A stretch of DNA of 64,000 nt from Sedimentisphaerales bacterium. Its GTDB lineage: Bacteria > Planctomycetota > Phycisphaerae > Sedimentisphaerales > SM23-30. Positions 30,179 to 55,256 of the stretch are shown here, piece by piece. The DNA is taken from NCBI GenBank assembly GCA_963666285.1, contig OY762711.1; one strand, written 5' to 3'. The translations under genes were made by a program, and so were the position numbers. Positions within the stretch are counted from its first letter, which is position 1, and every line of letters begins with the position of its first letter. Below the pieces are notes generated by a model. The model saw only the letters and a program-made list of their open reading frames with translations, was not told the DNA's origin and made no database searches.

Positions 30179-30298
30179 AGATACAGCTGGGTTTTAGCTG
30201 GCAGATAGTTAAAACTATATCTGCATTTAAGTTAAGTAAATAAAGCGTGTTATGAGTAGTTGTGTAGTATGGGGCTGCTTGTAATACGCTTTTTTCTA

Positions 30299-30844
30299 TT
30301 AGGTGTAGTTGTTATATGAAGTGATTTCTTCTATTGGTTTTCGGTTTTTGGCGGATGGCTGTGCTGCTGGTGGATGGCCCAAAGTTATGATAAGCTCAAC
30401 TCTTTTATTGGCTGGTACTTGCAGCATTTTTTTAATTGGTTTTTCTTTGAACCAGCCGATCAAGCATGTGCCGAGGTTAAGTTCGGCGGCCTGCAGGCAG
30501 AAGTGTTCAGCTGCGATAGCTATGTCCATTTGTGAGAAGGCTTTGCGTTTGATTATGCCGCCGAGTTTAGCGGTTAATTTCTGCCGTTGTGATACTACGG
30601 CGACTAGTACCGGTGCAAGATGTGCAAATCCGTTCATAGCTAATGCTTTGTCAGATATGCAGTTAGCTAGTTTTTCTTTTAGCTCCGGCCGGTCAATTAT
30701 AATGAATTTCCAGGGTTGTGAGTTACATGCCGAGGGTGCAAGCCGGGCGGCTTCGATGCACTTGACGATATCTTCTTTATTGACAGGGGTTTCCTTATAG
30801 TATCGGCAGCTGAATCGTTTGTTGGCAAGTTCGAGAAAGTCCAT
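30299..30844 (-). CDS. Nitroreductase family protein
   Basis: RFSCR.Y, ARLAPSACNSQPW and LGTCLIG. Confidence 0.93.
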   Translation of the reverse strand: MDFLELANKRFSCRYYKETPVNKEDIVKCIEAARLAPSACNSQPWKFIIIDRPELKEKLANCISDKALAMNGFAHLAPVLVAVVSQRQKLTAKLGGIIKRKAFSQMDIAIAAEHFCLQAAELNLGTCLIGWFKEKPIKKMLQVPANKRVELIITLGHPPAAQPSAKNRKPIEEITSYNNYT

Positions 30845-30992
30845 GGTGGTATTATAATGCGGTTGGCGGGGTGAGTCTATAGGTGATTTAACCTTTTTCG
30901 GTTATTGAATTTAGAGAATGATTGGAATATAATTTCTATCTCTGTAGCAGTTACCAGATATATATAGCAGGCTTGACAGAAAGAAATCTAAA

Positions 30993-32579
30993 ATGGACCG
31001 CAACCTATTTGCAGATATAGCTTTATCGTATGTTCCACATGCACTTACATTGATCGACAGGAACCCTTACAGCCCGACTTACGGCTGCTGTGACCGTGAA
31101 TACTGGCATTATCGAACGCTGGATTTTCCGTGCGGGATGGCGCAGGAGCATGTGCTGACGCTGGCGATGCTGTATGTTACCGATGTGCCGGGCAATAAGT
31201 GGTATAAGTGTAATCGGATAAAGGAGTTGTCGATAGCAGCAATGCGGTTCGCGATAACCGGCTCGCATAAGGACGGTACCTGTGATGACTACTATCCGTA
31301 CGAGCGGGCAATGGGAGCGTTGGCGTTCTCAACTTATGCAATAGCAGAGAGTTATCAGCTTTTGGAAGTTGAAGATGATGAGATTGTCGGACTGCTGCGT
31401 AAGCGTGCTGATCATTTGCTGGGCCATAATGAGACAGGGCAATTGAGTAACCACCAGGCGCTGGCGGCGCTGGTACTACAGACAGTATATGAAGTTACAG
31501 GCGATGAGCGGTATCGTGCCGGGGCGAAGGAGCGGGTAGAGCTGACGCTGAGCTGGCAGAATAAAGACGAGGGCTGGTTCCAGGAGTATGAAGGGGCTGA
31601 CAGCGGCTATCTTACTTGTACAATTGACTTTATGTCGAAATATTATCAGAAGAGCGGAGACGAAAGTGTGGTTGAACCGCTGAAGAAGGCGGTTGATTTC
31701 TGTCGGAATTTCATGCATCCGGACGGCAGCTATGGTGGTGAGTATAATAGCCGGAATACGTATCATTATTATCCGCATGGTTTTGAGATAATTGCGAAGG
31801 TTTGTCCGGCAGCGGCATGGATGAATGATCGGTGGCTGGAGGGAGCGGCTAATGGAAAACGGTATTATAACGACGATAGCCGGATGATCGGACACCTGAT
31901 ACATAACATGCTGGCGGCGTATCGCGACTGGTATGAAGTGAGGCCGGGGGCCGGTGATTGCGAGCTAACGGATGGTGTGCGGTGGTATCGCGGCGCTGAG
32001 ATGGCGGTTGCCCGTACGAAACGGTATCACGCCGTGGCGGGGATGCGTAAGGGCGGGGTATTAAAGGTGTACGACGACGCGCGGTGCATATACGGCGACA
32101 CGGGATTAATAGGCAAAACAGCGGATGGATCGGTCTGGGCCAACCACTTACAGGACGAGGAAAATGTGATTTCGGCTGATGAACAGGCGGGAGTTTTTGT
32201 GGTGAAGGGGTGCTTTAGTAAACGCAAGAGTAAGCTGGCAGACCCGACGAAATTGATAATATTTCGGATGTTGAATATGACGCTGGGCCGGTTTGCGCCG
32301 AACCTTTTGAGGTCGCTATTGCAGAATATCTTGATAACCGGTAAGAACCGTTCGAGTTTCTGGTTCGAGCGGAAGATAATTTATGCCGGGGATAAGGTGA
32401 CGATTGAGGATAAGGTTGACCCTAAGGCCGGGTTTGTTATGCTGAGTGTCGGTAGTGACGCGACGAGTATTTATGTGGCGGCGAGTAATGTTTACCAGGA
32501 GTCGGTTATGTTGGACTGGCAGAATGCGTCGCAGGAAGTTTGCAAGGGGGGAGTTTGGAAGAGGATAATACAGGCATAA
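30993..32579 (+). CDS. Hypothetical protein, probably an alpha/alpha toroid fold, associated with the glycosylation locus
   Basis: 528-aa ORF with repeated Q..EGWF.EY and HPDGSYGG motifs, upstream of a flippase-like gene. Confidence 0.65.
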   Translation: MDRNLFADIALSYVPHALTLIDRNPYSPTYGCCDREYWHYRTLDFPCGMAQEHVLTLAMLYVTDVPGNKWYKCNRIKELSIAAMRFAITGSHKDGTCDDYYPYERAMGALAFSTYAIAESYQLLEVEDDEIVGLLRKRADHLLGHNETGQLSNHQALAALVLQTVYEVTGDERYRAGAKERVELTLSWQNKDEGWFQEYEGADSGYLTCTIDFMSKYYQKSGDESVVEPLKKAVDFCRNFMHPDGSYGGEYNSRNTYHYYPHGFEIIAKVCPAAAWMNDRWLEGAANGKRYYNDDSRMIGHLIHNMLAAYRDWYEVRPGAGDCELTDGVRWYRGAEMAVARTKRYHAVAGMRKGGVLKVYDDARCIYGDTGLIGKTADGSVWANHLQDEENVISADEQAGVFVVKGCFSKRKSKLADPTKLIIFRMLNMTLGRFAPNLLRSLLQNILITGKNRSSFWFERKIIYAGDKVTIEDKVDPKAGFVMLSVGSDATSIYVAASNVYQESVMLDWQNASQEVCKGGVWKRIIQA

Positions 32580-32950
32580 GGGAAGGAAACGCGGATATAG
32601 GTAAAAAGTAAGAGGTAAGAACTAATAGTTGAGGTGTTGCTACGCAACGGTTTGATTAAATCGGCTACGCCGAGGATTTTTTTTGACCACGGAAAAAACT
32701 GAAGAAACGGAAAAGATATTAAAAGGATAAAGGATAAAAAGAAAAGTTGTTAGTTAGCGGTTAGCAGTGAGCTAATTATTAATGCTGAATTATGGATTAT
32801 GACAATATAAATTTCAGAGCGCAAAAGGGGACGGCCCCCTTTAATTTTTCTTTTACCACGAATGAACGCGAATAAACACCAATAATTTATAAAGAGACTC
32901 GCTACCGCTCATGCTGATTTATGCTCAGCCGGGGACGGCTAAGCTACATC
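32580..32950 (+). repeat. Mosaic of short tandem 7-10-mers and small palindromes
   Basis: AAAGGAT x2, (CA)GTTAG-type, TG(A/G)ATTA-type and CACGAAT 10-mers; GTTGCTACGCAAC, TCGGCTACGCCGA, AAAGGGGACGGCCCCCTTT and AGCCGGGGACGGCT. Confidence 0.8.
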
Positions 32951-33000
32951 CCATAGCGATGTTGTGATGGATTGAAGTTGGAAAGCTATCTGGTAAAGTA

Positions 33001-33963
33001 ATGACTATATATATGAAGAAGATGAATTTTAAAAAGATAATAATGTCGGTAGTTGCGGTTGCGGTGTCGGCCGGATTGATCTACTACCTTATAGGCCGAA
33101 TGGATAAACAGCAGGTATCGCAGATATGGCAGTCGGCGGATCGGAAGTGGCTGGGGATCGCGCTGGTGCTGACGTGTATGGTGCCGGTGTTTGCGGTTAC
33201 CCGCTGGCTTGGCGTTTTGCGTGCGCAGGGGATAAAGCTGCCGTTTATGGTAGCGCTGCGTGCGGTGCTGATGGCGAATATACTGAATAGTTTTCTGCCG
33301 AGTAAGGGCGGTGATATTGTTAAGGCGACGTATATCCGTCATCATGGCGGGCTGACGCTGGGGTTTGGAACGGTGATACTCGAACGGCTAATCGATCTGA
33401 TGGTGCTGAGTGTGATCGGGCTGCCGTGTTCGATCTATACTCAGACGGGCTGGGGGATCGGGGCGAGCGGGGTGCTGCTGGCGATAGTGGTTGGTGTGAT
33501 AGTAACGGCGACGGTGCTGCCGATAGAGAAGATGCCTTTGCCGGGTAAGATGAAAATGAAGTTTCTGGATTTGCAGCAGGTGTTTCCGAAATGGCTTAAG
33601 CGGCCGGGGTGTATGGCGCAGACTTTTTTGGGGTCGGTTTGTGTGTGGTCGATAGCAGGGTTTACGATTGTTTGTTTGATCGAGGCGTTTGGGCTGGAGC
33701 TTAGCTGGCTAAACGCATATGCGATATTCCCGGTTGGGGTGCTGGCCGGGCTGGTGCCTGCTTCTGTTAGCGGGATAGGGATACGTGATACGGTGTTTAC
33801 CGAGCTGCTGGTGGCGGCGGGGGTAGCGGAGTCCGGTGCGGCGATGGTGGCGATGGGCTATACGGTTTATGCGTACTGGCTGTTGAGTCTGGTGAGTCTG
33901 CCGGCGGCGGGAATTCAGATATTTCAAACGTGGTTTGAAATATCTGGAAAGGGTAAAGAGTAA
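33001..33963 (+). CDS. Lysylphosphatidylglycerol synthase TM domain / flippase-like membrane protein
   Basis: RW..VL, LPSKGGDIVK, ERLIDL and P.SVSGIGIRD. Confidence 0.88.
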   Translation: MTIYMKKMNFKKIIMSVVAVAVSAGLIYYLIGRMDKQQVSQIWQSADRKWLGIALVLTCMVPVFAVTRWLGVLRAQGIKLPFMVALRAVLMANILNSFLPSKGGDIVKATYIRHHGGLTLGFGTVILERLIDLMVLSVIGLPCSIYTQTGWGIGASGVLLAIVVGVIVTATVLPIEKMPLPGKMKMKFLDLQQVFPKWLKRPGCMAQTFLGSVCVWSIAGFTIVCLIEAFGLELSWLNAYAIFPVGVLAGLVPASVSGIGIRDTVFTELLVAAGVAESGAAMVAMGYTVYAYWLLSLVSLPAAGIQIFQTWFEISGKGKE

Positions 33964-34041
33964 AATAAAAAGTGTAAAGGAGGTGCCTGCACCGTACGGT
34001 ACAGGACCTAGTTTAAATCGGCTGACGCCGAGGGAAAATGC

Positions 34042-34084
34042 TTTACCACGAATGGACACGAATTTACACGAATTAATAATAAGG
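34042..34084 (+). repeat. 43-bp direct repeat, copy 1
   Basis: TTTACCACGAATGGACACGAATTTACACGAATTAATAATAAGG, identical to 36371-36413. Confidence 0.95.
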
Positions 34085-34320
34085 AGACGGACTCTTTTAA
34101 TTCTTTATTTTAATAATGTTTATTGTCTAAGTGAGTTTTTATGAATAAAATACTGTTTATTATTTGTATTGTATTCCTTTTTTGTACTTGTGGCTGTAAG
34201 TACGATGAAGAGCAGTTTTGGGCTGATATGGCTTTACGTGGACATAGTTCAAAATATATGATGTCTGGAGCTGCAGCCAGGCCACTGTATGAGTCAAATA
34301 AAGTTGATTTTTATATAATA

Positions 34321-35657
34321 ACTGAACTTTTGCAAAATTAGGGTAAAGCTAATTGTACTTTAATACGTTTAAAACTTGTTCCGTTGGATTCGATTTGATC
34401 AACCACCCAAGCGATTGTATTGCTGAGAGTTTCTCGCATAACTGCCATACAAGATTGTCCTATGGTCGTCAGGCGTTCTCGTGCCCATTCACACACACGG
34501 TTCTGCTGCATTTGAGTCAAAAGTACGCTATACGCCAGAAACACCATGTACATGTGTCTTGTCTGACCCAGGCCGCTTCTAAGCTGACAGTCGCCCATGC
34601 CCAAATACTGCTTGCCGTCTCGATGAAAGCACTCTGTGCCTTGCCAGCGGCAGCGATAGACCTTCAGGATACGAATCGCTTCCCAGTTGCATCGATTGCA
34701 AACCAGAATCTTTTTAGGTTCAATATCATTCTTTTTATGCCAGATAATCAGGATACGTACTTTGTGGTCTACACCAGGAATCCTGATACTTTTAGTAAAG
34801 TAATATTGGCGATGCTTGCCAATAGTTATGAGTTTTTTGATTTCAGGGTCAATAGATTTGGCTACTTCTTCAGCCTTTATTACTTTGCCCTGAAATATAG
34901 TCTTACGATTTGTTTTCAAATCACCAACATAATTACGTTCATACTGGTTTATATGGTTAAGGTTGTCGCTATGGGTAAACCAGCTATCGAAGGTAAAGTC
35001 ACCGGGAATATCGTTAGCTACAGTCCAGTCAACCAGATTGCGGAAAAGGATATTATGATCCTGAAATTCAATGCCCCGTTCCAGACAATCTTCTTTTTTG
35101 ACAAATCTGTAAAACTCCAAAGGATAATGTTTCCCGGAATTACAGACATAATTGGCTATCAGGTAATCATGGGCTATTTTATTACGTTGATCTGCATGAT
35201 CCCAGAAATATCCTACATCCTCAATATGTTTACCACTATGGTCTATCAGAACATTATCAAGGGCAATAACCCCAGAATCGCTATATCTGGTTTTAGGGTC
35301 TTTCTGCAGCCACTCCAGTCTGGCAGTGTTAAGCGATTCTTCGTCCCATTCAACATCGGTGAGAAACCGGTTGAGACAGGATTGATCAGAGGCAAATGCA
35401 AATTCCCTGTTGATGGCAGAGACGTTTTTCTTGCGGGCAATGATAAGACCGGTGATATACTCAGCAAAATGACGACGTTCAGGCTCATTTTGAAAATGAT
35501 CGCCAAATTCATCGACAGCTTGCTGGACTACTGTAGGGTATTGTACTATAGCTGGCATACCAAAATCCTTTCTGGGTTTTCGGAGTGCTCTGCTATCAAA
35601 TTTTATCGGTCTATACCACATTTTAACGTTAATTTTTTAATTTTGCAAAAGTTCAGT
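34321..35657 (-). mobile_element. IS701-family insertion sequence
   Basis: Perfect 20-bp terminal inverted repeats ACTGAACTTTTGCAAAATTA (34321-34340 and 35638-35657). Target duplication AATA, or TAATAA if the TIR is taken as 19 bp. Confidence 0.92.
34338..35558 (-). CDS. DDE transposase, IS701-like
   Basis: IALDNV, TFDSWF and Y..RW..E.FHRDGKQ.LG. Start taken at MPAIVQ after AAGGA; alternative start at 35621. Confidence 0.9.
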   Translation of the reverse strand: MPAIVQYPTVVQQAVDEFGDHFQNEPERRHFAEYITGLIIARKKNVSAINREFAFASDQSCLNRFLTDVEWDEESLNTARLEWLQKDPKTRYSDSGVIALDNVLIDHSGKHIEDVGYFWDHADQRNKIAHDYLIANYVCNSGKHYPLEFYRFVKKEDCLERGIEFQDHNILFRNLVDWTVANDIPGDFTFDSWFTHSDNLNHINQYERNYVGDLKTNRKTIFQGKVIKAEEVAKSIDPEIKKLITIGKHRQYYFTKSIRIPGVDHKVRILIIWHKKNDIEPKKILVCNRCNWEAIRILKVYRCRWQGTECFHRDGKQYLGMGDCQLRSGLGQTRHMYMVFLAYSVLLTQMQQNRVCEWARERLTTIGQSCMAVMRETLSNTIAWVVDQIESNGTSFKRIKVQLALP

Positions 35658-35971
35658 AATAATTAACTTTCATCCCAAAACACCAGATAATATTGTGGTA
35701 AAGGTAGTCTTTGAAAATCCATTGGATAAGAATAGTCCATTTTTGATATTAAAAGACTATGCAATCTCTCCTAAAAAGATATTGCTTAAAACACCTCCAG
35801 TTGCCGGAGTTAAGCCAAACCATACTTATTCCGTTGATATTAAACTATATAATAGAGGAGATTTAAATAATCCGATAGACTGTCTAGATAATCAGTATAT
35901 AAATTCTGGCAATGTTAGTTCTGATTTGTCAGGAAGTTTGATTTTTTGCAGATAATGAAAGGTTTTTATTT

Positions 35972-36268
35972 ATGAAAATACTTACATATTGCTTTTGTGT
36001 TACTGCATTATTAATAAATGGTTGTATCAGAGGGTACAGTGACTTTGTCAGTCAATGTGATAATATGGTAGGTTGTAGTGTAGAATTATCTCCATATGAT
36101 CCAGCTAAGATAACATCATTTGATGAAAAACAGGATGCGTATCATTATGTTTTTGAAGATACTGGGTGTAAATTTATTTATTATGTAAATAAATATACAG
36201 GAATAGTTGAATCATGGGAATTTGTGAGTTCGCCTGATAATTGTTATCTAATATATCAGGGGTACTAG
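35972..36268 (+). CDS. Small AT-rich lipoprotein
   Basis: AAGG RBS and lipobox INGC. Confidence 0.7.
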   Translation: MKILTYCFCVTALLINGCIRGYSDFVSQCDNMVGCSVELSPYDPAKITSFDEKQDAYHYVFEDTGCKFIYYVNKYTGIVESWEFVSSPDNCYLIYQGY

Positions 36269-36370
36269 TTTTGTGGTGTTGATTAAATCGGCTTATGCCG
36301 AGGAAGAGAGAATCGCAGAAGGATACCGATGGATGTAGATAAAGATGTTGGAAATGCAAATACATAAAAG

Positions 36371-36413
36371 TTTACCACGAATGGACACGAATTTACACGA
36401 ATTAATAATAAGG
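36371..36413 (+). repeat. 43-bp direct repeat, copy 2
   Basis: Identical to 34042-34084. Confidence 0.95.
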
Positions 36414-36711
36414 TGACTCGCTACCGCTCGTGTATTATTAATATAGGGTTAAGGTTTCAGTAGTCAGGGAAGGAAAGCCGCGGATCGGCATGCTAATTAT
36501 ATTCGGCAAATGCCGAGGGAAAGATAACCGCAGATTATCGCTGATTATTTTATTATTATTTGTGTCGAGTCAGTGGGAAAATAGAAAAGAAAATTGATGT
36601 CGTAAAGTTTAGCATTTACTTTTTCTATTGCTGATTTATGCGTAACCGGTGATAATGTGAACTACATGATGAAGAAGTGAGTTACTAATTGACATAGATG
36701 ACGGAGGCTGC

Positions 36712-37194
36712 ATGAATAAAATACAGGACACTAATTTTGTTTTGATATTATTTATAATACTATCAATTGCACAAGGAATATTAATATTAAAGCAATATAA
36801 TAAGATATCGCTTTTAGAAGATTCTGCCCAAATTTACCATAATTATATTATACACGCAGAAAAGTTGAACTCATATAATATTAAACTGTCTAATTATGAT
36901 GTTGACCTTAAAAATGTTGTCTTAAAGTATAAAACCCAAGAGTATAAAACAATATCATTAGGTGATTTGCCCGCGTTAGATTTTGGGGCAAAGGTTACTG
37001 ATGATAATAGAGAGAGTCATGTTATTAGGTATCATATTGATGATATGGCATCTCCAATATGTTTTGAAATTACAGGTGTTCGTGGCGATGGTACGATTTT
37101 TGAAGGGAAAGTGTCTGGCTTTCATATAAGAGAAGATAACGAAACTTTTGAAACATTTATACCTGAAGACGGTAAAGAATTACGATATCATTAG
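36712..37194 (+). CDS. Small AT-rich membrane-anchored hypothetical protein
   Basis: GGAGG RBS and an N-terminal TM helix. Confidence 0.7.
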   Translation: MNKIQDTNFVLILFIILSIAQGILILKQYNKISLLEDSAQIYHNYIIHAEKLNSYNIKLSNYDVDLKNVVLKYKTQEYKTISLGDLPALDFGAKVTDDNRESHVIRYHIDDMASPICFEITGVRGDGTIFEGKVSGFHIREDNETFETFIPEDGKELRYH

Positions 37195-37309
37195 TATATA
37201 ATTAAACGAAAAACTGTCTCGGGTTATTTGATCGTGAAGGGTGTGGAGTTAGAGGAGAAATAGAGAAGGGTATGTATCAGTTACTTTATTGTGTTAAGTA
37301 ATATGGAGC

Positions 37310-37654
37310 ATGGTTATGAAGAATGTTATTTATATTTTGTTGTTGTTACTAATAATATTATTGTTGCTAGTAGTTGTTATTTATGATAATTCACAGGAAT
37401 ATATTGACAAAATTAAAAACGTGCAAACTTCAGGACAAGAAAAACAAGTCTTTCTTGAATTACATTCAGAATGTCTTAAAGGCAATATTGATTATGTTCT
37501 CAATTTTTATGATAATAATGACTGTGAAATAAAGTATTTTGATTCTAATTTTTGGAGTGTAGTTAAATATGTTGAGTTCAACATTGTTGGATATTCAGAG
37601 TATAAACATACAATAATTGATATCAATAATTTAGAAATTTTAATGAGAGAATGA
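37310..37654 (+). CDS. Small AT-rich membrane-anchored hypothetical protein
   Basis: GGAG RBS and a poly-Leu TM segment. Confidence 0.65.
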   Translation: MVMKNVIYILLLLLIILLLLVVVIYDNSQEYIDKIKNVQTSGQEKQVFLELHSECLKGNIDYVLNFYDNNDCEIKYFDSNFWSVVKYVEFNIVGYSEYKHTIIDINNLEILMRE

Positions 37655-37722
37655 TATGTGTGACTTATTAAGTAAGTTTTTCTTACTCGAAATTTACCAT
37701 TTAACGAAAAAGGAAATTGATT

Positions 37723-37839
37723 ATGAAAATATTAATGATAACAATGTTTATATCAATATGTTTTTGTTTAAATGGATGCAAGAAAGATGAAGCAGAAATA
37801 CATGTAAATCCATTGATCGTATTAATTGGCCTCAATTAA
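37723..37839 (+). pseudogene. 38-aa lipoprotein stub, probably truncated
   Basis: AAGGA RBS, MKILMITMFISICFCLNGCKKDE..., ending where the AT-rich DNA stops. Confidence 0.5.
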
Positions 37840-37948
37840 GCCTTGACAGGCCGGTAGATGCCGGGTTTGTCGAGCTTCCGATAAATCTGGATTATATTCT
37901 GCCCGGTGTTCCCAGGAAATATTTTTTGCTGAAAAAAGGAAAGTAGAA

Positions 37949-40168
37949 ATGGAAAAAAGTCTATTATTAAATAGAGTTGTTATTGTATTGGCTATGGTTG
38001 CGGCGGTATTGTCGGGCCAGGATTATGTATCGGTTGGCATGGGCAGCTATAAGAAGAGTATGCCGGGGAATGTGCCGGGACCGCAGAAGGAGATATATAA
38101 GACCGGAAAAATAACCGGCCCGATACCGACTACCGACTGGTGCAGCAGTTTATACTGGGAGAAGTATTCTTCGAATCATTTTGCCCTGCCGCTGGCGATG
38201 TGTGCCGGGGAGAAGGGGTTGGGGATCTCGTATCCGGGCGGTAATATCCATGCGGTAGATAACCATTTTTTCGGCAGTTATATAGATGAGTTTGTGCTGG
38301 GCCATTCAGGAGAGGCCAGGTTTCCGGATGCGCGGGTGGACGGATATAGCGACTGGTTTGTGGATGTGTTGTTTGAACGTGATGGCAGCAGTATGCGGCT
38401 GAGCTACGGGCATGGCAGCCCGTACGTTTACGCGATATATAAAAACGGGGGTGCGAGGCTAACGTTCCGGGAGGGATACCGGGTATGGTCCGGAAATGAA
38501 AATAGTGCGGTGCTGGGAATAACGCATATGGGTAAGCATTGGGCGTTGTTTGGGCCTGCCGGTTCGACGTGGTCGGGGCTTGGCACAAATGAGCTGGTGA
38601 ATAATAACGGCGGAAAGGATTATTTTTCGCTGGCGCTGCTGCCGGAGCCTAGCGAGCAGGCATTGAGGATGTTCGGCAGGTATGCGTATGCTCATGTAAC
38701 CGGTACAAAGGTGCTGTGGGAGTATGATCAGCAGAGCCGGATGGTGAAGACGAGCTATGCCGTAGAGACTAAATCATATCAGGGTGACGGCGAGGGTACG
38801 ATCATGGCGTTGTACCCTCATCAGTGGCAGTTTTGCGGCGACCGGGCGCTGCCGTTTATGTATAACTCTGTCCGCGGTCCGATGAAGGCTGTTGCCGGTA
38901 AGGGTTTTTCGACAGGTATGCGGTTTCCGGGTGTGCTGCCGTTTATGCCTATGACGGGCGGGTGCAGCTTTGGGATATTGAATGATTATGTGCTGAAGGC
39001 TGCGGATCATAATTTTGCCGACCCGCCCGATACGTATTGGGCCGGTAAGCAGCTTGGGATGCTGTCGAATATTATCCCGGTAGCGGAGATGGCCGGACAG
39101 AAGCTGCCGGCGGAAAAGTTTTTTGGTAATTTGAAGGGGCGGCTGGAAGACTGGTTTGATGCATCGAGGGTGAGTAAGAGTGTGCATTATTTTGCGTATG
39201 AAGATAACTGGAAGAGCCTGATCGGGGTGGCGCCGAGCTATGGCACAAACGATCAGCTGAACGATCATCATTTTCATTACGGGTATTTTATCCGGGCGGC
39301 GGCCGAGATTGCCCGGACCGATCGTAACTGGTGCAGAGATGATCAGTGGGGGGCGATGGTGGATATGCTGATCCGTGATATTGCCAGTGGCGATCGGGCG
39401 GATGATCAGTTTCCGTTTCTGCGATGTTTCGATCCATATGAGGGTCATTCGTGGGCGTCCGGTCATGCAAAGTTCGGCGACGGCAATAACCAGGAGTCAT
39501 CGTCAGAGGCGATGAATGCGTGGACTGGTATAATCCTGTGGGCGATGGCGACCGGTAATACCGAGCTGCGAGACCTGGGGATATATCTGTATACGACCGA
39601 GATGAACGCGATTAACAGCTACTGGTTCGATATTAATGATAACCTGTTCCCGGCTGGTTACCGTCAGCAGACCGCGGCGATCGTGTGGGGCGGTAAGGTT
39701 GACTTTGCGACGTGGTTCAGCGCCAAGCCGGAACATATTGTGGGGATAAACCTGCTGCCGATTCAGTCGGGTTCGCTGTATCTGGGGCTTTACCCGGAAT
39801 ATGTCAGGCGTAACCTGCTTGGATTGTATAGTTTGAACGGGGGCGGGTATAGCGACTGGCAGGAGACGTTTCTGATGTACGAGTCGCTGGCAAGTGGTCA
39901 GAGTGCGATGCAGAAGTTTAATGCCGGTCTGCTGCGTGATAAGGACCCGGTAGCACAGGCGTATGCGTATCACTGGATATCGAATATGGACTACCTGGGT
40001 AATGTTAACCGTAATATTGGGGCGGATTATCCGTGTGCGATGACGTTTACCAAGGGTAATATCAACAGCTATATGGTGTGTAATTATGAGCCAAACGAGA
40101 TAACGGTCAGGTTTTCGAATGGTAAGACAGTGAAGGTGAAGGCGAATGATATTTTTGTGGGGCACTGA
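37949..40168 (+). CDS. Glycoside hydrolase family 81 endo-1,3-beta-glucanase
   Basis: PTTDWCSS, NDHHFHYGYF, FDPYEGHSWASG and NQESSSEA. Confidence 0.95.
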   Translation: MEKSLLLNRVVIVLAMVAAVLSGQDYVSVGMGSYKKSMPGNVPGPQKEIYKTGKITGPIPTTDWCSSLYWEKYSSNHFALPLAMCAGEKGLGISYPGGNIHAVDNHFFGSYIDEFVLGHSGEARFPDARVDGYSDWFVDVLFERDGSSMRLSYGHGSPYVYAIYKNGGARLTFREGYRVWSGNENSAVLGITHMGKHWALFGPAGSTWSGLGTNELVNNNGGKDYFSLALLPEPSEQALRMFGRYAYAHVTGTKVLWEYDQQSRMVKTSYAVETKSYQGDGEGTIMALYPHQWQFCGDRALPFMYNSVRGPMKAVAGKGFSTGMRFPGVLPFMPMTGGCSFGILNDYVLKAADHNFADPPDTYWAGKQLGMLSNIIPVAEMAGQKLPAEKFFGNLKGRLEDWFDASRVSKSVHYFAYEDNWKSLIGVAPSYGTNDQLNDHHFHYGYFIRAAAEIARTDRNWCRDDQWGAMVDMLIRDIASGDRADDQFPFLRCFDPYEGHSWASGHAKFGDGNNQESSSEAMNAWTGIILWAMATGNTELRDLGIYLYTTEMNAINSYWFDINDNLFPAGYRQQTAAIVWGGKVDFATWFSAKPEHIVGINLLPIQSGSLYLGLYPEYVRRNLLGLYSLNGGGYSDWQETFLMYESLASGQSAMQKFNAGLLRDKDPVAQAYAYHWISNMDYLGNVNRNIGADYPCAMTFTKGNINSYMVCNYEPNEITVRFSNGKTVKVKANDIFVGH

Positions 40169-40223
40169 ATAAAAAAAGTTAGAAGATAGAGGTGAGAAGT
40201 TTTTGATGTGTTGCTGCGCAACC

Positions 40224-40679
40224 TTAGCTTAAACGACTGGTGTCGGGTTTGATAGACCGAGGCGATGTGCTAGTCACTTTTATCCTGGAAAGAATGATAA
40301 TCGAAGTTCCGGCGATGATGCAGAATGAGCTGTCCCATACGACGATGAGCGGTTCGGCTTTGAATAACAAGCCGCGGGTGAGCAGGACGATGCCGAGCAG
40401 GATATGAAAGCCGCCCATGAATGCCATGATTTTGAGTTTGTTCTGGGTGTCGAACATAAGGTAAATGAATATGGAGCCGACCATGCCGGAGATCATAGCA
40501 GCCATAACGAACCAGTATTTCAGGATGGGTGTAAAGGTTACGTTTATGCCGACAAAATCCTGGATGATTTTATCGCATAGTGACCATGGCAGAAAAGCTA
40601 CCAGTACCGGCGTGAGCCAGGCGATACTGAAGGCGATGAGGAATATTCTCCTGGCAAGTTGGATTTTACCGGTTTGCAT
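40224..40679 (-). CDS. Four-TM hypothetical membrane protein
   Basis: Four hydrophobic segments. Confidence 0.65.
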   Translation of the reverse strand: MQTGKIQLARRIFLIAFSIAWLTPVLVAFLPWSLCDKIIQDFVGINVTFTPILKYWFVMAAMISGMVGSIFIYLMFDTQNKLKIMAFMGGFHILLGIVLLTRGLLFKAEPLIVVWDSSFCIIAGTSIIILSRIKVTSTSPRSIKPDTSRLS

Positions 40680-40691
40680 TTATGAAAGACT

Positions 40692-41882
40692 TTATTTTTT
40701 ATGGTCGGAGAATTTAATGATGTTTGGTTTGGCGTCTGGCTTGGTATTATCCATTTCAATGAGATTGTTTTTCTGAGCCATTATTTTAAGATCGTTAATT
40801 ACTTTCACTGAATTTTCGATGCCTTGTATAAGCTGGAACGGAGCTACAGGAATGAAATCATCTTTGACGGCAGCAAGTTGAGCATCTTCCGGCGCCTCTC
40901 TAAAGTCGATAATGCCATCTTCAGTTTCAAATTCCCAGAACATATCGCAAGCGAGAAGGTTTTCGGGGGTAGACCATTCTGTGTCTACATAAAATAGTTG
41001 GAATAAGTCTTTGATCACTCTCGACTTTGACTGCATTGTGCTTTGAGATACTTTAAAGAAAGAGTAAATTTCTTTGTCTTCAATATATGGTTCGTAGTCA
41101 GGGTCAGACAGGAAGTTGATTGTGCCGATAGCGTGGATGATTCCAGCGGCCCAGCTTGCAGGTCTGCCTTTTTTGAACTCGCCAGGGAATTGGATAGCAA
41201 AAGAGATAAGCATTTCCAAAGACAGTATGCCTAAGGTTCCGACCTCGTATTTTAAAATAAACTTCAGCAGCAATGTATAAGCATTATCAAATTTAGACAG
41301 CAGTTCTTCGGGAATGTCGTTGATAGCTTCGAAGGTTAAATTTTCCGGTTTTTCATCAAAAAAATCATCATCAAAAATGTCATCGTCGTCGTCAAATTCA
41401 TCATCAAAGTCATGATGTGCAGGGCGTTTGGTGAAATCAGGGATTTTTACATTTTCGCAATCAGAGCAGATAAATTCTTTTTTGTGTACAGTATACGATT
41501 CCTGGCCAATTTTAATTCTTCTGCCGCATTTACTGCATAATGTTGGTTTGAATTCAGGCGGATTTTCCAGTATTTCAAAATTATATTCGTTGGTGCTGAA
41601 TTCAACGAATAACTCCATGTTATCTTTAAAATCTTCCAGGCATTGTTGGCATTCCTGCCATTTGCCGGTATGGCCGGAGTGGAAATGGTGCCCGCAGATT
41701 GTGTATTTAAAATGGTTTTGCATGCAGCTGTTATGTGAAAATGAAAACATTTCGTACTGGTCTAGATCGTCGCAGATCCAGTTATCACAGCAATCAGTTT
41801 TGGTAAGGTTTTTTGTGCTGCCGCAAAGTCCGCATTTTGGTCGGTTACGTTTTGATATTTTAGATTTGTCTCTTTTACGCAT
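40692..41882 (-). CDS. Cys-rich putative Zn-binding domain fused to a DUF6398-like domain
   Basis: CGLCG...CCDNWICDD, CxxC pairs, an acidic linker and WAAGIIHAIGTINFL.D. Confidence 0.7.
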   Translation of the reverse strand: MRKRDKSKISKRNRPKCGLCGSTKNLTKTDCCDNWICDDLDQYEMFSFSHNSCMQNHFKYTICGHHFHSGHTGKWQECQQCLEDFKDNMELFVEFSTNEYNFEILENPPEFKPTLCSKCGRRIKIGQESYTVHKKEFICSDCENVKIPDFTKRPAHHDFDDEFDDDDDIFDDDFFDEKPENLTFEAINDIPEELLSKFDNAYTLLLKFILKYEVGTLGILSLEMLISFAIQFPGEFKKGRPASWAAGIIHAIGTINFLSDPDYEPYIEDKEIYSFFKVSQSTMQSKSRVIKDLFQLFYVDTEWSTPENLLACDMFWEFETEDGIIDFREAPEDAQLAAVKDDFIPVAPFQLIQGIENSVKVINDLKIMAQKNNLIEMDNTKPDAKPNIIKFSDHKK

Positions 41883-41906
41883 GTTTAGATTCCCTTAATA
41901 ATCAGA

Positions 41907-42866
41907 TTATTCTTTATCTTTGTCTCTTACCATTAGTTCGAGTTCGATCTGTCGGCGGCGTATATCCTGGAGCAGTCGTCGGTTGATAGCGAGCAGGTCG
42001 GCGATGACGCCGACGATCAGCAGGAAGATCGAGCCGGCCAGGCAGGTAAGCGATACAACCAGGGTTGGTAGATGCTGGTCTTCGCTGCCTTTGCAGTAGT
42101 GCCAGCCGAACAGGGCGCCGAACAGGATGCTGAGGCCAAACGATACCAGTGCGAGCTTCATGAAGAGTTTATGCGGCGAATATATAACCGAAATACGCAG
42201 GATGGTTGACATCGAACGCTGGACGTAGTTTTTTATGCTCTTTACCAGCCGGGACGGTCGGAGGTCATCGTTGGTGCGGATAGGTACCGATTCGATGGCG
42301 ATACCCTGGCGGCCTGACTGGATGATGGTTTCGAGGGTGTAGGTGTACGGGTCGAAAACGTTGAGCTTGGCGGCCGCTGACCGGCTGATAGCACGGAAGC
42401 CGCTGGGGGCGTCTTTGACCTCGGTCTGCGATGCCTGGCGAACGACCCAGCTGCCCAGATGCTGGAGGAATTTCTTGATCGGCGAGAAATGCTCGGTTTG
42501 GGCGATTGGTCGGGCACCGATAACGAACTCGGCACGATGCGTGAGTATTGGTTCTACCAGTTTCGGGATATCGTCTGCGTTGTACTGGTTGTCGGCGTCG
42601 GTATTGACGATAATGTCGGCACCGAGCCGAAGGGCTGTTTCTATGCCGGTCATGAACCCGCGAGCGAGCCCGAGGTTGGTAGGATGGCGTACGATATGGT
42701 CGACTCCGCAGCGTTTTGCCACTTCTGCGGTCGCGTCGGTTGACCCGTCGTCGATAATGAGCCATTCGACCTTGTCTATGCCGGGAACTTCACGCGGCAG
42801 GAAAGACAGTGCGGTTTCAAGGGTTCCTTCTTCGTTATAACATGGGATTTGGATAATAAGTTTCAT
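41907..42866 (-). CDS. Glycosyltransferase family 2
   Basis: IQIPCYNEE, IDDGSTD, NTDADNQY and two C-terminal TM helices. Confidence 0.95.
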   Translation of the reverse strand: MKLIIQIPCYNEEGTLETALSFLPREVPGIDKVEWLIIDDGSTDATAEVAKRCGVDHIVRHPTNLGLARGFMTGIETALRLGADIIVNTDADNQYNADDIPKLVEPILTHRAEFVIGARPIAQTEHFSPIKKFLQHLGSWVVRQASQTEVKDAPSGFRAISRSAAAKLNVFDPYTYTLETIIQSGRQGIAIESVPIRTNDDLRPSRLVKSIKNYVQRSMSTILRISVIYSPHKLFMKLALVSFGLSILFGALFGWHYCKGSEDQHLPTLVVSLTCLAGSIFLLIVGVIADLLAINRRLLQDIRRRQIELELMVRDKDKE

Positions 42867-42957
42867 ATAAGCTGGTATTTGGTATTAGGTTTTAGTGTTA
42901 GTGGCGTAATCGCCTGTCGGCGAACCGAATTACAATATAATGCAACTTGAAAAAAGT

Positions 42958-44016
42958 CTATTCTTTTAATGGGATATTTTTATTTCTGGAAACTAAATTA
43001 TTTTGCGCAATAGCAATGGCTTTATGTAGTTTTTCCAGAATGAGTTTTTTGGGTGGTAGTGAAGTCATGTAGTCCGCAACTTTTATATTACTCTTGTGTA
43101 ATTGCAATAATTCGATATGTTCCGGATTTTTACCTGTACATAATATAAGTCCAATAGGAGAATTTTCGCCTTCAATTGTTTCATATTTTTCAAGCCATGC
43201 CAAGTATAGTTCCATTTCACCTTTAAAAGCAGCGTCAAATTCTCCGATTTTTAAGTCTATGGCGATTAATGATTTAAGTCGGCGGTGATAAAATAATAAG
43301 TCAATGTAATAGTCCCGGTCATCTATTGTGATTCTTTTTTGCCTGGCTAGAAAGGCAAAGTCAGAACCTAATTCTATTATAAATTTTTGTAATTCAGCGA
43401 TTATGGCAGATTCCAAATCTTTTTCCGAATATGTATCACGCAGTTCAAGAAAATCTAAAAAATACGGATCTCTAAAAACAAGATCAGGAGTAATTTGATG
43501 GTTATCTTTAAGTTGTTCCAAATCTTTTCTAATCGTATCTTCCGGTTTTTTACTTATGGCAGTTCTTTCATACAGCATCGAGTTAATTCGTTCTCTGAAT
43601 GTTCTGACGCTCCATTTTTCTTGTATACACATTTCAATATAAAAAGAACGTTTAAGCTGGTCTTCAATCGGGAGAATTGCCAGAAGGTGTGTCCAGCTTA
43701 AATGTCGTATCAGTGATACGACAATTTCCCTGTCTGGAAATATAGCGGAAAATTGTATCATACGTCTAAGGTTTTTTTCTGAAAAAGAGCTGCCATATTC
43801 TTTAGAAAGATGCTTTGCGAGAGATGATACAATTTGTTTGCCGTATTCTGCGCGTTTGTCTAATAATACTTCATCGTTAACTCTTTTACCAATTTGCCAG
43901 TAAAGCATTGTCATTGAAGTATTTATTGAAAGTGCTAAATTTTGCTTACACCTATTAATCAGTGTTTTGATGTCATTAAGTACTTCTAATTGTTTGTTAA
44001 TATTGTTACTCATCAA
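42958..44016 (-). CDS. DUF1016/YhcG PD-(D/E)XK nuclease family protein
   Basis: YWQIG, LSWTH, DPYFLDFL, ELGSDFAFLARQ and IDLK. Confidence 0.95.
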   Translation of the reverse strand: MMSNNINKQLEVLNDIKTLINRCKQNLALSINTSMTMLYWQIGKRVNDEVLLDKRAEYGKQIVSSLAKHLSKEYGSSFSEKNLRRMIQFSAIFPDREIVVSLIRHLSWTHLLAILPIEDQLKRSFYIEMCIQEKWSVRTFRERINSMLYERTAISKKPEDTIRKDLEQLKDNHQITPDLVFRDPYFLDFLELRDTYSEKDLESAIIAELQKFIIELGSDFAFLARQKRITIDDRDYYIDLLFYHRRLKSLIAIDLKIGEFDAAFKGEMELYLAWLEKYETIEGENSPIGLILCTGKNPEHIELLQLHKSNIKVADYMTSLPPKKLILEKLHKAIAIAQNNLVSRNKNIPLKE

Positions 44017-44235
44017 ATGTTATAGTGCAAGTATGTTTATAATAGTATGCAAGCCTAAAATTATCATTATATATTAACTAAAAATAGGATAAATGTAAAC
44101 TGGCGAGTTTTTGGTGTTGGTTGGGCCTACCGATGTAAGAGTTTGTGTAATAGATAATTAGGTTGTTTTTCGCTGAAAATGGAATATAATTTGAAATATA
44201 ATGTAACCAAGCTCGACTAAGGATGTGTAAAACAA

Positions 44236-45174
44236 ATGGATAACAATCCTCTTCCAAATCTGGACAGCAGCCCGGAGCTTCGCGAGAAGCTGCTAGCTGA
44301 ATGCCGACTTCGGCCAGGTGAAGTATGGGTATGTCCGGAGAGTAAGCATCGGGTAGGTTGCCTTGATGCGGCGGATAGCCACCAGGTGAGTGAACTAGCA
44401 GCCGGTAATAAGATATCCCTGGCAGTGCACGATCCGCCGTATAATCTGGTTGTTTTTGAAGAGCGCACAGTCGGGGAATTTATCGACTGGTGTAAAAAAT
44501 GGGTTGGTAATACTGTGGGGCATCTGGCAGTTGATGCCTCTGTTTATTTCTGGCTGGGTGCAGACCAGAACGATGGTTTTCAGCCGCTGCCGGAATTTAT
44601 GATTATGATGCGCGACTTTGCAGATCTGCAAAGTCGTTCTTTTATTACGATGCGAAATCAGCGAGGATACGGCACACAGAAAAACTGGATGGCAGTTCGT
44701 CAGGAGTGTTTGTATTATGTTAAGGGCGGCCCGGTTTTTAACGTGCAGTATACCGATATCCCGAAGGTGCTGAGGGGCTATTATAAAGAGGTCGGGGGTA
44801 ATGTTACCGAGAATATCGAGCGGAGCAAGTCGGAGAATATCCGGGCGAGCAATATCTGGATAGATATTCAGCAGGTGTTTTACCGTATGCAGGAGAATGT
44901 CAGCGGATGTTATGCGCAGAAGCCGCTGAAGGCTATCGAGCGGCTGGTATTGGCCAGCAGTAATGAAGGTGAGGTTGTGGCAGACTTTTTTGCGCATGCC
45001 GGGACGACTCTTATCGCGGCGGAAAAGCATGGGCGGCGGTGTATAACCTGCGATATCGACCCGATATACTGCGAGATGACGATACGGCGACTGGAGCATT
45101 ATCGCAAGACGGGTGAAGAAGGTTGGCAGAATGGGAATTGTTTCAATTTGGATGATATCCAAATTGAAAAGTGA
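44236..45174 (+). CDS. N4/N6 DNA methyltransferase, beta class
   Basis: DPPY precedes DFFAHAGTT; QKPLK..ERL. Confidence 0.9.
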   Translation: MDNNPLPNLDSSPELREKLLAECRLRPGEVWVCPESKHRVGCLDAADSHQVSELAAGNKISLAVHDPPYNLVVFEERTVGEFIDWCKKWVGNTVGHLAVDASVYFWLGADQNDGFQPLPEFMIMMRDFADLQSRSFITMRNQRGYGTQKNWMAVRQECLYYVKGGPVFNVQYTDIPKVLRGYYKEVGGNVTENIERSKSENIRASNIWIDIQQVFYRMQENVSGCYAQKPLKAIERLVLASSNEGEVVADFFAHAGTTLIAAEKHGRRCITCDIDPIYCEMTIRRLEHYRKTGEEGWQNGNCFNLDDIQIEK

Positions 45175-45202
45175 AGAACTCCTATGAGAAAAATGGTGAA
45201 AT

Positions 45203-46354
45203 ATGAGTGAAGAAATTATCAAACAGGACGTGGTAAATGATCAATTATTTGATCGAGTTGTATCTATTTTAGAGCAAGCCAGAGCTAATATAGTTCGCTC
45301 GGTTAATCATAATATGGTGATTGCTTATTGGCTAATTGGTCGAGAAATTGTGGAGGAGGTGCAAAAAGGTGAAAAACGGGCTGATTATGGCAAAAAAAAT
45401 GTGGCAAATTTGTCAAAACAGTTGAGCAATAAATACGGTAAAGGATTTTCTATAAGCAACTTAAAGTATTTTCGTCAATTTTTTATTGCTTTTCAGGATA
45501 GATTTCAAATTGGCCACCCGACGGGTGGCCAATTGAATGATATAGAAATCAGCTACCCAACGGGTGGCCAAATGTATGATGGAGCCTTAAATACAAAAGG
45601 TGTAAAAGGTTTTTCGCCTGAACTGTCATGGTCACATTATCGTGCTTTGATGAGGGTAACAAATATTGATGCTCGTGACTTTTATGAAAAAGAGGCTATT
45701 GAGTGTGGTTGGACTAAATTGCAATTGGAGAGGCAGATTCATACATCATATTATGAAAGAATTTTGAGTCATAAAGGAAAGAAAGGGCTGCTGCCGGTAA
45801 ATCGAGAAAGGTTAGCCGGAGAGCAGGCAAATGCTATTGATATAATCAAGTCACCATTTGTTCTTGAGTTTTTGGATTTACCTGATTCTCCATCGATGCG
45901 TGAAAATGATATTGAGCAATTGATAATAAACAATCTGCAATCATTTCTGTTGGAGTTAGGTAAAGGTTTTTCTTTTGTGGCTCGTCAGAAACATATTAGA
46001 TTTGACGATGATGATTTTTATCTGGATCTGGTATTCTATAATATCATTTTGAAATGTTATGTGTTGGTCGATCTAAAAATTGGAAGGCTAACTCATGCTG
46101 ATGTTGGACAAATGGATGGTTATGTAAGATTGTTTGAAGATAAGTTTAAGGTTGAAGGAAATAATCCAACTATTGGACTAATTCTGTGTTCGGATAAGAG
46201 TGAGACTGTGGCTAAGTATTCAGTCTTGAGTGAGTATAAACAAATCTTTGCATCGAAATATTTGAAGTATCTGCCGTCGGAAGAAGAACTGAAAAGAGAA
46301 GTTGAAAAAGGACTCAAATTGATTGAGAATTATAAAGCTGAAATAGAAGAATAA
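45203..46354 (+). CDS. DUF1016/YhcG PD-(D/E)XK nuclease family protein
   Basis: YWLIG, LSWSHY, ELGKGFSFVARQ, VDLK and GQMDGY. Confidence 0.95.
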   Translation: MSEEIIKQDVVNDQLFDRVVSILEQARANIVRSVNHNMVIAYWLIGREIVEEVQKGEKRADYGKKNVANLSKQLSNKYGKGFSISNLKYFRQFFIAFQDRFQIGHPTGGQLNDIEISYPTGGQMYDGALNTKGVKGFSPELSWSHYRALMRVTNIDARDFYEKEAIECGWTKLQLERQIHTSYYERILSHKGKKGLLPVNRERLAGEQANAIDIIKSPFVLEFLDLPDSPSMRENDIEQLIINNLQSFLLELGKGFSFVARQKHIRFDDDDFYLDLVFYNIILKCYVLVDLKIGRLTHADVGQMDGYVRLFEDKFKVEGNNPTIGLILCSDKSETVAKYSVLSEYKQIFASKYLKYLPSEEELKREVEKGLKLIENYKAEIEE

Positions 46355-46359
46355 TTTTT

Positions 46360-48243: not shown

Positions 48244-48282
48244 GAAACAAACTCCATAATATTATTGGAGCTTGTTGTCTGT

Positions 48283-49059
48283 TTATTTAGCTTTTTCGAC
48301 GGTGTGGATATCATCCTCAGACACTTCGCCAGTGAAATCTTTGATCTCATCCGGCAGGTATATACTGATATTGGAAAGATTTTGCGCTTTGACAGAGACA
48401 TTGCCGGACTCGATAGATAGGATATGTCCGCCGAAATCCAGGTTATCTGATAGAAAGTGCATATGATAGCCGGTGATATTGACACCCTGGAGGTATTCTG
48501 GGAACCTGAATCCGATGATCCTGCCGGTTGCATTTTCCTTTTTGAATACGCTTTGGTTTCGGGCAACTTCCTTTAATGACGGATATGGTTTGGTCTGGCC
48601 GGGCACGCTTCTGCAGGTTACATTTTGGAATTGACCGCTGATCAGGAAAACAGCCGGTTTGTTTGCTCTTGGCAGAATGCTATCGAGTTTGGTATAGAGG
48701 TTGTTGATTCCGCCGGTGAAAGAGTTGGTCGCAGTTGCCGGGCAGTTTATAAATGTGACGTTGGCAAATGGTGTGGTCTGGGAATTGCTTACATTGTATA
48801 TTTTGCCGTCGGCTCTGACCTGGTAGATATTTCCGTTGAGCATGACCATTTCGCCGTCGAGGGCGTGGAATGTTCCTATGCCGGTATCGCCGTGTTTTGT
48901 GAGTTCTGCAAAGGAGACAGTACCATCATAGCTGCCCTGCATAAGGGTTTGCAGAGTAGAAACCTGGTATAGTGTGTCTGTTTTAGCCTGTGGCTGCGAG
49001 CAGCCGGTGGCAATGAAAGCAATAAGTGCAGTGATCAGTATTCTATAAATGTTTTTCAT
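48283..49059 (-). CDS. budA: Alpha-acetolactate decarboxylase with a lipoprotein signal
   Basis: HGDTGIGTF..LDGE and GYHMHFLS....GGH; lipobox ATGC. Confidence 0.92.
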   Translation of the reverse strand: MKNIYRILITALIAFIATGCSQPQAKTDTLYQVSTLQTLMQGSYDGTVSFAELTKHGDTGIGTFHALDGEMVMLNGNIYQVRADGKIYNVSNSQTTPFANVTFINCPATATNSFTGGINNLYTKLDSILPRANKPAVFLISGQFQNVTCRSVPGQTKPYPSLKEVARNQSVFKKENATGRIIGFRFPEYLQGVNITGYHMHFLSDNLDFGGHILSIESGNVSVKAQNLSNISIYLPDEIKDFTGEVSEDDIHTVEKAK

Positions 49060-49089
49060 GATGAGTTTTATATCGTTTAAAGGTTAAAT

Positions 49090-49122
49090 AAAAAAGGGTC
49101 TTACAATATAGTAAGACCCTTT
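49090..49122 (-). terminator. Terminator after the aminotransferase gene
   Basis: AAGGGTCTTAC-AATATA-GTAAGACCCTT. Confidence 0.85.
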
Positions 49123-49143
49123 GAGTTCTAATGGAAGAAAAAA

Positions 49144-55220: not shown

Positions 55221-55256
55221 TATATTAAATATGATTCGCCTGTGGCGAGACTATCA

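Follow-up and report, generated by a model that had tools for sequence, protein, structure and literature searches.

In the accessible parts of the literature, arrays of extragenic repeats are described as inverted doublets or as alternating units, from which the chromosome-wide single-arm state reported here differs. REPINs combine two members of a single repeat family in inverted orientation and have a linked RAYT, and tandem REP arrays with one orientation per genome half, described in the accessible text of the same report (PMC3116915), provide a partial precedent. BIMEs consist of REPs alternating in orientation with conserved linkers (PMC2817692). The NIME arrays, reported only from Neisseria, are mosaic intergenic arrays with many short families and a single 20-bp inverted repeat as their basis; they vary between loci, host IS elements and have been proposed as recombination promoters, and neither one-armed polarity nor skew domains are described in the accessible text of that report (PMC1797815). 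Oriented hairpin repeats (NTS/SRM) clustered near variable genes are read as single-stranded DNA by the small Ssn GIY-YIG nuclease (PMC11893778), intergenic heptamer direct repeats have been proposed as translational signals in Beggiatoaceae (PMC4679880), and IS110 elements, IS621 among them, are known to target REPs (PMC11208160).

The locus examined here lies in a 64-kb stretch of DNA (the window; positions 480001-544000 of contig C1) within the 6.15-Mb chromosome of the genome designated G000. The focal array occupied the whole 421-bp intergenic gap and started at the first base past the stop codon of a 528-aa gene. Its modules, the exact ends of which may be off by a few bases, and the neighbouring features are as follows (coordinates in the window; ranks of G frequency at 4-fold sites are within the chromosome).

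30299..50319, plus strand: G-shifted domain, in which resident genes of either strand gained plus-strand G at synonymous sites; peak at the focal array
30993..32579, plus strand: upstream gene, 528 aa, weak pectate-lyase-like match; 4-fold G 0.50, rank 31 of 3174; a G-shifted resident gene
32580..33000, plus strand: focal mosaic array; 11 motif types of a hand-made library in 368 bp
32580..32637, plus strand: leader, purine-rich heptamer run and GGTGT junction; left arm of a four-helix-bundle-type element, with BLAST copies genome-wide and two-armed in G001-G003
32633..32675, minus strand: two mini-hairpins with C-G-closed GTA loops on the minus strand and a T-rich/TTAAA spacer between them
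32686..32715, plus strand: CCACGGA-type 9/10-mer run, a variant of the GxxExxY-arm family, which was seen one-armed in G017
32722..32768, plus strand: two more heptamer runs, with BLAST copies
32823..32847, plus strand: hairpin module with G/C stem; degenerate copy at 34081
32852..32910, plus strand: CACGAAT 10-mer run and a hairpin that closes solely on the minus strand (its tandem G-A pairs were assigned by eye); the module is an IS110 target at other loci
32923..32947, minus strand: GTAG-tagged REP-like hairpin, read on the minus strand; 96% match over 25 bp in a genome of the same class
33001..33963, plus strand: lysylphosphatidylglycerol-synthase TM / flippase-like gene; 4-fold G 0.667, rank 2 of 3174
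33955..34101, plus strand: second array, in which 34042-34084 is copy 1 of an exact 43-bp direct repeat
34141..35955, plus strand: AT-rich lipoprotein-like gene interrupted by IS701 (about 34316-35659; transposase 34338-35621 on the minus strand)
35972..36268, plus strand: AT-rich ORF for a lipoprotein-like product of 98 aa, which has a single homolog (68%) in the protein collection
36276..36550, plus strand: third array, with copy 2 (36371-36413) of the 43-bp repeat
36712..37654, plus strand: two further AT-rich small ORFs, of no family and single-copy
40171..40222, plus strand: heptamer run and hairpin, downstream of a GH81 gene
41907..42866, minus strand: GT2 glycosyltransferase; ortholog in G017 at 81% identity
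42874..42923, plus strand: heptamer run and TCGCC hairpin
55236..55248, plus strand: isolated TCGCC hairpin

A sequence-only reading of this DNA had described the gap as a mosaic of short repeats. A motif search of the window found every motif listed there at its claimed place on the plus strand, and by pattern search all 12 motif matches of the focal array were on that strand. The leader-type motif occurred at 32580 and 36467, the GCCGAGG-linked motif at 32658, 34015 and 36285 (variant at 36503), the G/C-stem motif at 32825, the CACGAAT-type 10-mers at 32856, 34046 and 36375, and copies of the TCGCC-type motif at 42910 and 55236. The heptamer-linked hairpin at 32636 had been said to recur at 40208; a copy was present, at 40210, and it differs by one loop base. 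The mosaic is genuine and far above chance expectation. The 15-mer at 32896, an exact match of the sequence at 36415, had 2 matches in the window and the 16-mer at 32852 had 3, compared with none in each of 100 dinucleotide shuffles. Public contigs tiled 29000-48900 with no differences, all from one study and probably from the source sample. Three DNA runs of one study yielded no independent variant of the array, the joints seen being accounted for by other array copies, and a metagenome scan with the flippase-like gene returned no locus.

The focal array resembles the described systems in parts. As with REPIN/RAYT repeats, it consists of extragenic hairpin repeats that belong to two-armed hairpin elements in relatives and serve as IS targets, but about ten module types are present as single, head-to-tail units that track G-skew (compare PMC3116915, in its accessible text). 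No inward pairs were found among 230 cores of the genome, the longest inverted pair in the array was 16 nt at 75%, and the one RAYT-like ORF (62.7 bits against a cut-off of 80) lay 2.7 Mb away with no evident REP flanks. The module at 32923-32947 carries its GTAG tag at the hairpin foot on the minus strand, as do the GTAG REPs in the accessible text of PMC3733652. Unlike the units of BIMEs, all modules are co-oriented. As in NIME arrays, composition varied between loci and IS elements were taken in; no dRS3 20-bp inverted repeats were seen by eye in the focal array and, as a further difference, arrays in G000 were not enriched at glycosyltransferases. The Ssn/SRM system shares oriented hairpin repeats, but the array in G000 mixes many families (compare the accessible text of PMC11893778). 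One candidate, a 91-aa single-domain GIY-YIG gene at C1:2936019-2936294 followed by array-type hairpins, is possibly an Ssn-like nuclease. The 7-mer runs between genes recall the MacGregor heptamers, for which the accessible text of PMC4679880 proposes translational control; here they are arms of larger elements with a hairpin anchor, and their orientation is locked to the domain. No tyrosine integrase of the integron type was present among the 50 ORFs of the window, nor was any other dedicated recombinase or integrase. No terminal inverted repeat surrounded 32580-33000, although the two-armed forms of G001 are MITE-like. The array has no constant repeat of the CRISPR kind, its inter-motif DNA recurs elsewhere, and the window held no cas match. 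The arrays are a variant of mosaic repeat arrays, NIME- or BIME-like in working, with REPIN-like parts and an unexplained polarity; some of the repeats may appear in the supplements of PMC3733652, PMC6006769 and PMC11893778.

A census of the chromosome, based on 22 hand-made library patterns and on our own ORF calls (4533 genes), identified 378 intergenic clusters, of which 160 contained at least 2 motif types and 47 at least 4. Both library and gene calls were self-made, and the genomes compared below are kin. The focal array was joint-richest in motif types among the approximately 160 multi-type arrays, and its pieces recurred elsewhere in other combinations at 83-100% identity (BLAST). Many arrays started within 50 bp of a stop codon. 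Modules were mixed at fixed junctions: the 131 cores showed 6 or more upstream types in combination with 4 downstream types at the 5-bp GGTGT junction, one 30-bp unit was nested exactly at that junction, and loose contig ends clustered at module junctions, including GGTGT. A second abundant intergenic family of roughly 200 bp, at about 80 sites of C1, was co-oriented with the arrays where the two met. At one site, a 1.3-kb array began with the very base at which a Vsr endonuclease gene (C1:5794171-5794599) ended.

The co-orientation of the non-palindromic motifs, pointed out in the sequence-only reading for this locus, held throughout the chromosome. All matches agreed in direction in 133 of the 160 arrays, discordant pairs arose mostly from two near-palindromic patterns, and pairs of non-hairpin motifs were co-oriented in 256 cases and opposed in 5. 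Direction was also shared between arrays. In 142 arrays at least 80% of matches lay on one strand (the other 18 were dropped); within this set, neighbours less than 20 kb apart agreed in orientation 106:10, and this agreement faded to 103:93 at 50-100 kb. Pairs 100-300 kb apart were anti-correlated (229:416), perhaps from clusters either side of the origin. Replichore and gene direction were rejected as the source of array orientation, which showed a ratio of 78:64 against replichore (p = 0.28) and was weakly related to the flanking genes (79:63 for the 5′ neighbour and 86:56 for the 3′ neighbour).

The origin of the modules was indicated by related genomes. In G001, G002 and G003, of the same genus as G000, the heptamer-GGTGT-hairpin unit was the left arm of a symmetric element located after stop codons; this held for all 7 G001 copies examined and for copies in the other two genomes. 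The sequence-only reading had suggested a link of 7-mer runs with four-helix-bundle genes and of 9/10-mer runs with GxxExxY genes. Indeed, of 20 four-helix-bundle loci in relatives, 17 had inverted arms, compared with 1 of 23 in the control (23 of 30 fetched loci were parsed, 3 of them from G000). Inverted arms were also present at 18 of 25 GxxExxY loci, compared with 0 of 25 (25 of 30 loci parsed), 10 of the GxxExxY loci also having direct repeats. The latter count is based on alignment scores, which replaced a cruder regex count (7 and 6 of 23), and the arms concerned are CACGA/CACAGA 9-10-mers. The focal array contains periodic 7-mer and 9/10-mer module families shared with these arms. In G000 itself, the 230 cores formed 65 tandem pairs, 1 outward pair and no inward pair, and the inverted partner was absent for all 88 arms tested. 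Several modules of G000 are thus single arms whose counterparts in relatives belong to two-armed elements, one arm surviving.

Direct arms at four-helix-bundle genes were found in G000 (2 of 3 scored), G005 and G006, with G-rich flanks at three of these four loci. The four-helix-bundle genes of G000 had direct arms where any arms existed, and G003 had both states, its four-helix-bundle loci being two-armed. At C1:45200-46250 of G000, a four-helix-bundle gene was present as two whole tandem copies and a third partial one, each preceded by the same heptamer arm. Neither a four-helix-bundle nor a GxxExxY gene was located inside the 64-kb window. A search of the G000 genome detected no DUF559 gene and no intact GxxExxY gene, only two near-identical C-terminal GxxExxY fragments within arrays and opposite to the array direction (C1:4811539-4811649 and 5794793-5794906). 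DinB-type and ComEC genes were present in one-armed and two-armed genomes alike (5 genomes), and a pattern scan of genome contigs returned mostly single chance matches. A literature search, with most subscription journals outside its scope, found no report of GxxExxY-linked repeats or of one-armed arrays in skew domains, the GxxExxY term itself being used once in each of two papers.

The strand read by a hairpin-recognizing factor was addressed from loop sequences, because ViennaRNA energies of the small hairpins were nearly equal on both strands. Of 286 array hairpins, 150 had C-G-closed G..A loops on the strand opposite the G-rich one and 14 on the other, a count that is partly circular; when regions were defined by non-hairpin motifs only, the numbers were 84 on the bottom and 12 on the top strand. 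The 150 comprised 96 triloops, 46 GNYA tetraloops and 8 GNRA tetraloops. Stable DNA mini-hairpins show such a G..A loop pattern in the accessible text of PMC13037366. By sequence, the array loops fit that DNA pattern and differ from the tetraloops of RNA. The minus strand is likewise the one on which the GTAG-tagged module is read.

Array direction was matched by nucleotide composition. Less than 5 kb from arrays, 4-fold sites were G-shifted on the array strand whatever the direction of gene or fork, with skews of +0.32 and +0.13 in co-oriented genes and -0.24 and -0.37 in opposed genes. The signature of these domains (G up, T and C down, GC up) differed from that of the fork (G up, T up), and the local shifts were about three times the fork effect. 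Arrays matched the sign of the local skew domain in 125 of 135 cases (7 end arrays unscored; median domain 59 kb). The 4-fold G frequency was 0.33 in the last kb beside arrays compared with 0.21 at 20-30 kb upstream, with a longer trail on the 3′ side; the effect was weaker at 46 isolated arrays. Skew strength correlated with GC excess (r = 0.70), and arrays were spread along domains (35, 25, 27, 26 and 12 per fifth). In the window, the shift topped out at the focal array and faded by about 50 kb, the AT-rich ORFs being unshifted. The flanking genes that had been called host-like are not ordinary host genes, being unusually G-rich at synonymous sites. Divergent switches between domains were nearer than convergent ones, not significantly (p = 0.08), and comparison of gene size and GC at the 42 divergent boundaries revealed no evident gene in common. 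An origin of the G gain in DinB/Pol IV would predict the strongest gain after a 5′ G; instead the gain was weakest in that context and strongest after C, and this candidate was rejected. Separately, four RVT_1 (reverse transcriptase) matches were found in the genome, none in the window.

Related genomes were compared in stretches of 20 kb around pattern matches (14 from G017, 4 from G003 and 2 from G001). One-armed copies had G-rich flanks in 16 of 17 cases in G017 and 15 of 15 in G003, as in 72 of 88 in G000, and G003 contained a sharp switch of skew sign between opposite arms. In G006 the agreement of one-armed copies and skew was judged by eye, and T is high there too; its contig C51 contains 12 kb of an extremely G+T-rich strand with about eight co-oriented arrays and the genes opposite. 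The 19 two-armed matches of G001 had a near-zero mean skew, which is partly built in since both arms are counted. The five one-armed matches of G001 lay in flanks with the sign reversed (0 of 5), and stretches of that genome reached a skew of -0.3; given these flanks and skews, the notion that two-armed means unskewed is not cleanly supported.

An empty counterpart of the focal site was found in G017, of another genus in the same family and the sole genome with orthologs of both flanking genes. The upstream gene was matched at 67% (1 of 24 genomes, and none of 3 same-genus genomes) and the flippase-like gene at 58% (1 of 40 genomes); same-genus genomes had little synteny around the locus. In G017 the two orthologs adjoin, with one base between stop and start and no array, and the GT2 ortholog is directly next. 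Both the 421-bp array of G000 and 7.9 kb between 33963 and 41907 are missing there. The 7.9 kb contain more arrays, four small ORFs that are AT-rich (IS701 interrupts one of them), the GH81 gene and two others, and the first AT-rich block is bracketed by the 43-bp exact direct repeat (34042-34084 and 36371-36413). From their composition, the 7.9 kb probably represent a gain in G000; G017 being of another genus, loss there is possible, and the GH81 gene, being G-shifted, may instead have been lost from G017.

The proposal that the array acts as a landing pad gained support from this empty site, from the mixing of modules at GGTGT and from insertion sequences. Two IS110 families, with 4 and 9 copies, were inserted within the CACGA-type 10-mer module in the same direction in 13 of 13 cases. 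As in IS621-type targeting, IS110 inserts at a repeat; here the target is the 10-mer arm and no classical REP. This targeting accounts for passengers of the arrays, not for the arrays themselves. The module is a natural safe-harbour target for both families. In G017, too, a 10-mer-type module (C30, about 154.4 kb) is followed by an end that resembles the second family. IS701 was present in five copies at least 99.7% alike, and IS copies had too few changes to serve as mutation reporters.

Other parts of the sequence-only reading fared less well. It had placed the motifs at junctions with AT-rich genes. A GC step above 0.1 between neighbours was indeed found at 31% of 142 arrays compared with 10% of 1735 other gaps (the 3′ side being the lower one in 32:12), an enrichment that arises partly because the resident neighbour is G-shifted. 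However, AT-rich first neighbours were few (24 of 142 on the 3′ side and 14 of 142 on the 5′ side, compared with 582 of 4533 genes overall), a modest rise on the 3′ side only. The suggested targeting of glycosylation loci was not supported: 5 of 142 arrays compared with 79 of 1735 gaps were less than 5 kb from a glycosyltransferase, and none was in the six large clusters (54 of 62 matches used; repeated domains and one sub-threshold match excluded). Acquisition of genes, also suggested, agrees with the 7.9 kb absent from G017 and the 43-bp repeat around the AT-rich block; beyond this locus it found no support.

It is an evenly balanced judgement that this head-to-tail stack of modules, several of them single arms of elements two-armed in relatives, grows within its G-gained domain as only the opposite strand is exposed in single-stranded form. 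The structure, polarity, empty site and skew match were observed, whereas exposure, enzymes, order of events and the reason for the polarity are inferred. Within a domain, one of the two strands would often be single-stranded. Small hairpin-reading nucleases or transposases of RAYT, Ssn/GIY-YIG or GxxExxY type may cut the exposed strand at hairpin feet, and arms from other arrays would be inserted by patching at short junctions, GGTGT for example, so that arms are added or kept in a single direction. Biased resynthesis of the plus strand could give the G gain, and the process would carry AT-rich foreign genes occasionally, as passengers and not as its purpose. The arrays have no enzyme linked to them: no intact GxxExxY or DUF559 gene was detected in G000, and its RAYT-like ORF is below the cut-off. 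The domain would probably have come before the arrays. The reverse order, in which repeatedly nicked hairpin clusters undergo error-prone repair synthesis that moves away and writes the G-rich domain, is unlikely. It would agree with the rise of 4-fold G beside arrays and its trail on the 3′ side, with the correlation of skew strength and GC excess, and with the position of the richest array beside the gene ranked 2 of 3174; the G peak at that array agrees equally well with arrays causing skew. However, the orthologous region of G017 shows an equal G shift of the same strand, and none of the gaps examined across 38 kb contains an array; the domain-first order is therefore favoured. The distribution of arrays along domains and the weaker effect at isolated arrays also speak against the reverse order.

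That the arrays form a repeat-guided, integron-like cassette system acquiring and shuffling genes at glycosylation loci, the interpretation given in the sequence-only reading, is distinctly unlikely. The 7.9-kb difference from G017, the AT-rich block with its flanking direct repeat, GC steps threefold commoner at arrays, the tandem four-helix-bundle genes between direct arms at 45 kb of C1 and a co-orientation of about 2:1 (92:42) for AT-rich genes less than 3 kb from arrays are what such a system might leave behind. Yet glycosyltransferases were not enriched, the window encodes no integrase, an AT-rich neighbour was absent at most arrays, the gain may instead be a loss in the other genus, and the focal array parts two genes that abut in G017 and brackets no cargo. 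Retention of the modules for a role at the RNA level, as terminators, stabilisers or translation signals between operon genes is very unlikely, even though many arrays begin close to stop codons and heptamer runs have been proposed as translational signals (PMC4679880, accessible text): array direction tracks the domain and not the gene, the loops are GNA/GNYA and not GNRA and lie here on the non-message strand, and an Rfam search gave no match. Insertion following the replication fork, with later inversions that scatter fork-skewed segments into apparent domains, is highly improbable given the ratio against replichore, a domain signature in which T falls instead of rising and the size of the local shifts, although arrays either side of the 5.74-Mb skew minimum follow the leading strand and same-genus genomes share little synteny at the locus.

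Returning to exposure of one strand within a pre-existing domain, the locking of single arms to local domains of G gain indicates a process specific to one strand and distinct both from replication and from transcription of annotated genes. A broader proposal is tentative and somewhat doubtful: an undescribed, replication-independent, one-directional process acting over tens of kb would expose one strand, rewrite the other toward G, and convert selfish elements with two arms, from several unrelated nuclease families, into landing pads that are polar, recombine and steer the arrival of IS110 and foreign genes. Arm direction is a simple marker for mapping the strand-specific process across many genomes, and the GxxExxY and four-helix-bundle families, long unexplained, are now tied to testable DNA sites.

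Contigs C2-C4 of G000, about 65 kb each and 76-83% alike in long blocks, had no match to C1; they are not alternative copies of the focal region and are possibly related phages or plasmids. Elsewhere in the window (42958-46354), an N6/N4 methyltransferase gene was located between two YhcG/DUF1016 nuclease genes, the second of which contains a 35-bp internal repeat at 45507 and 45546.
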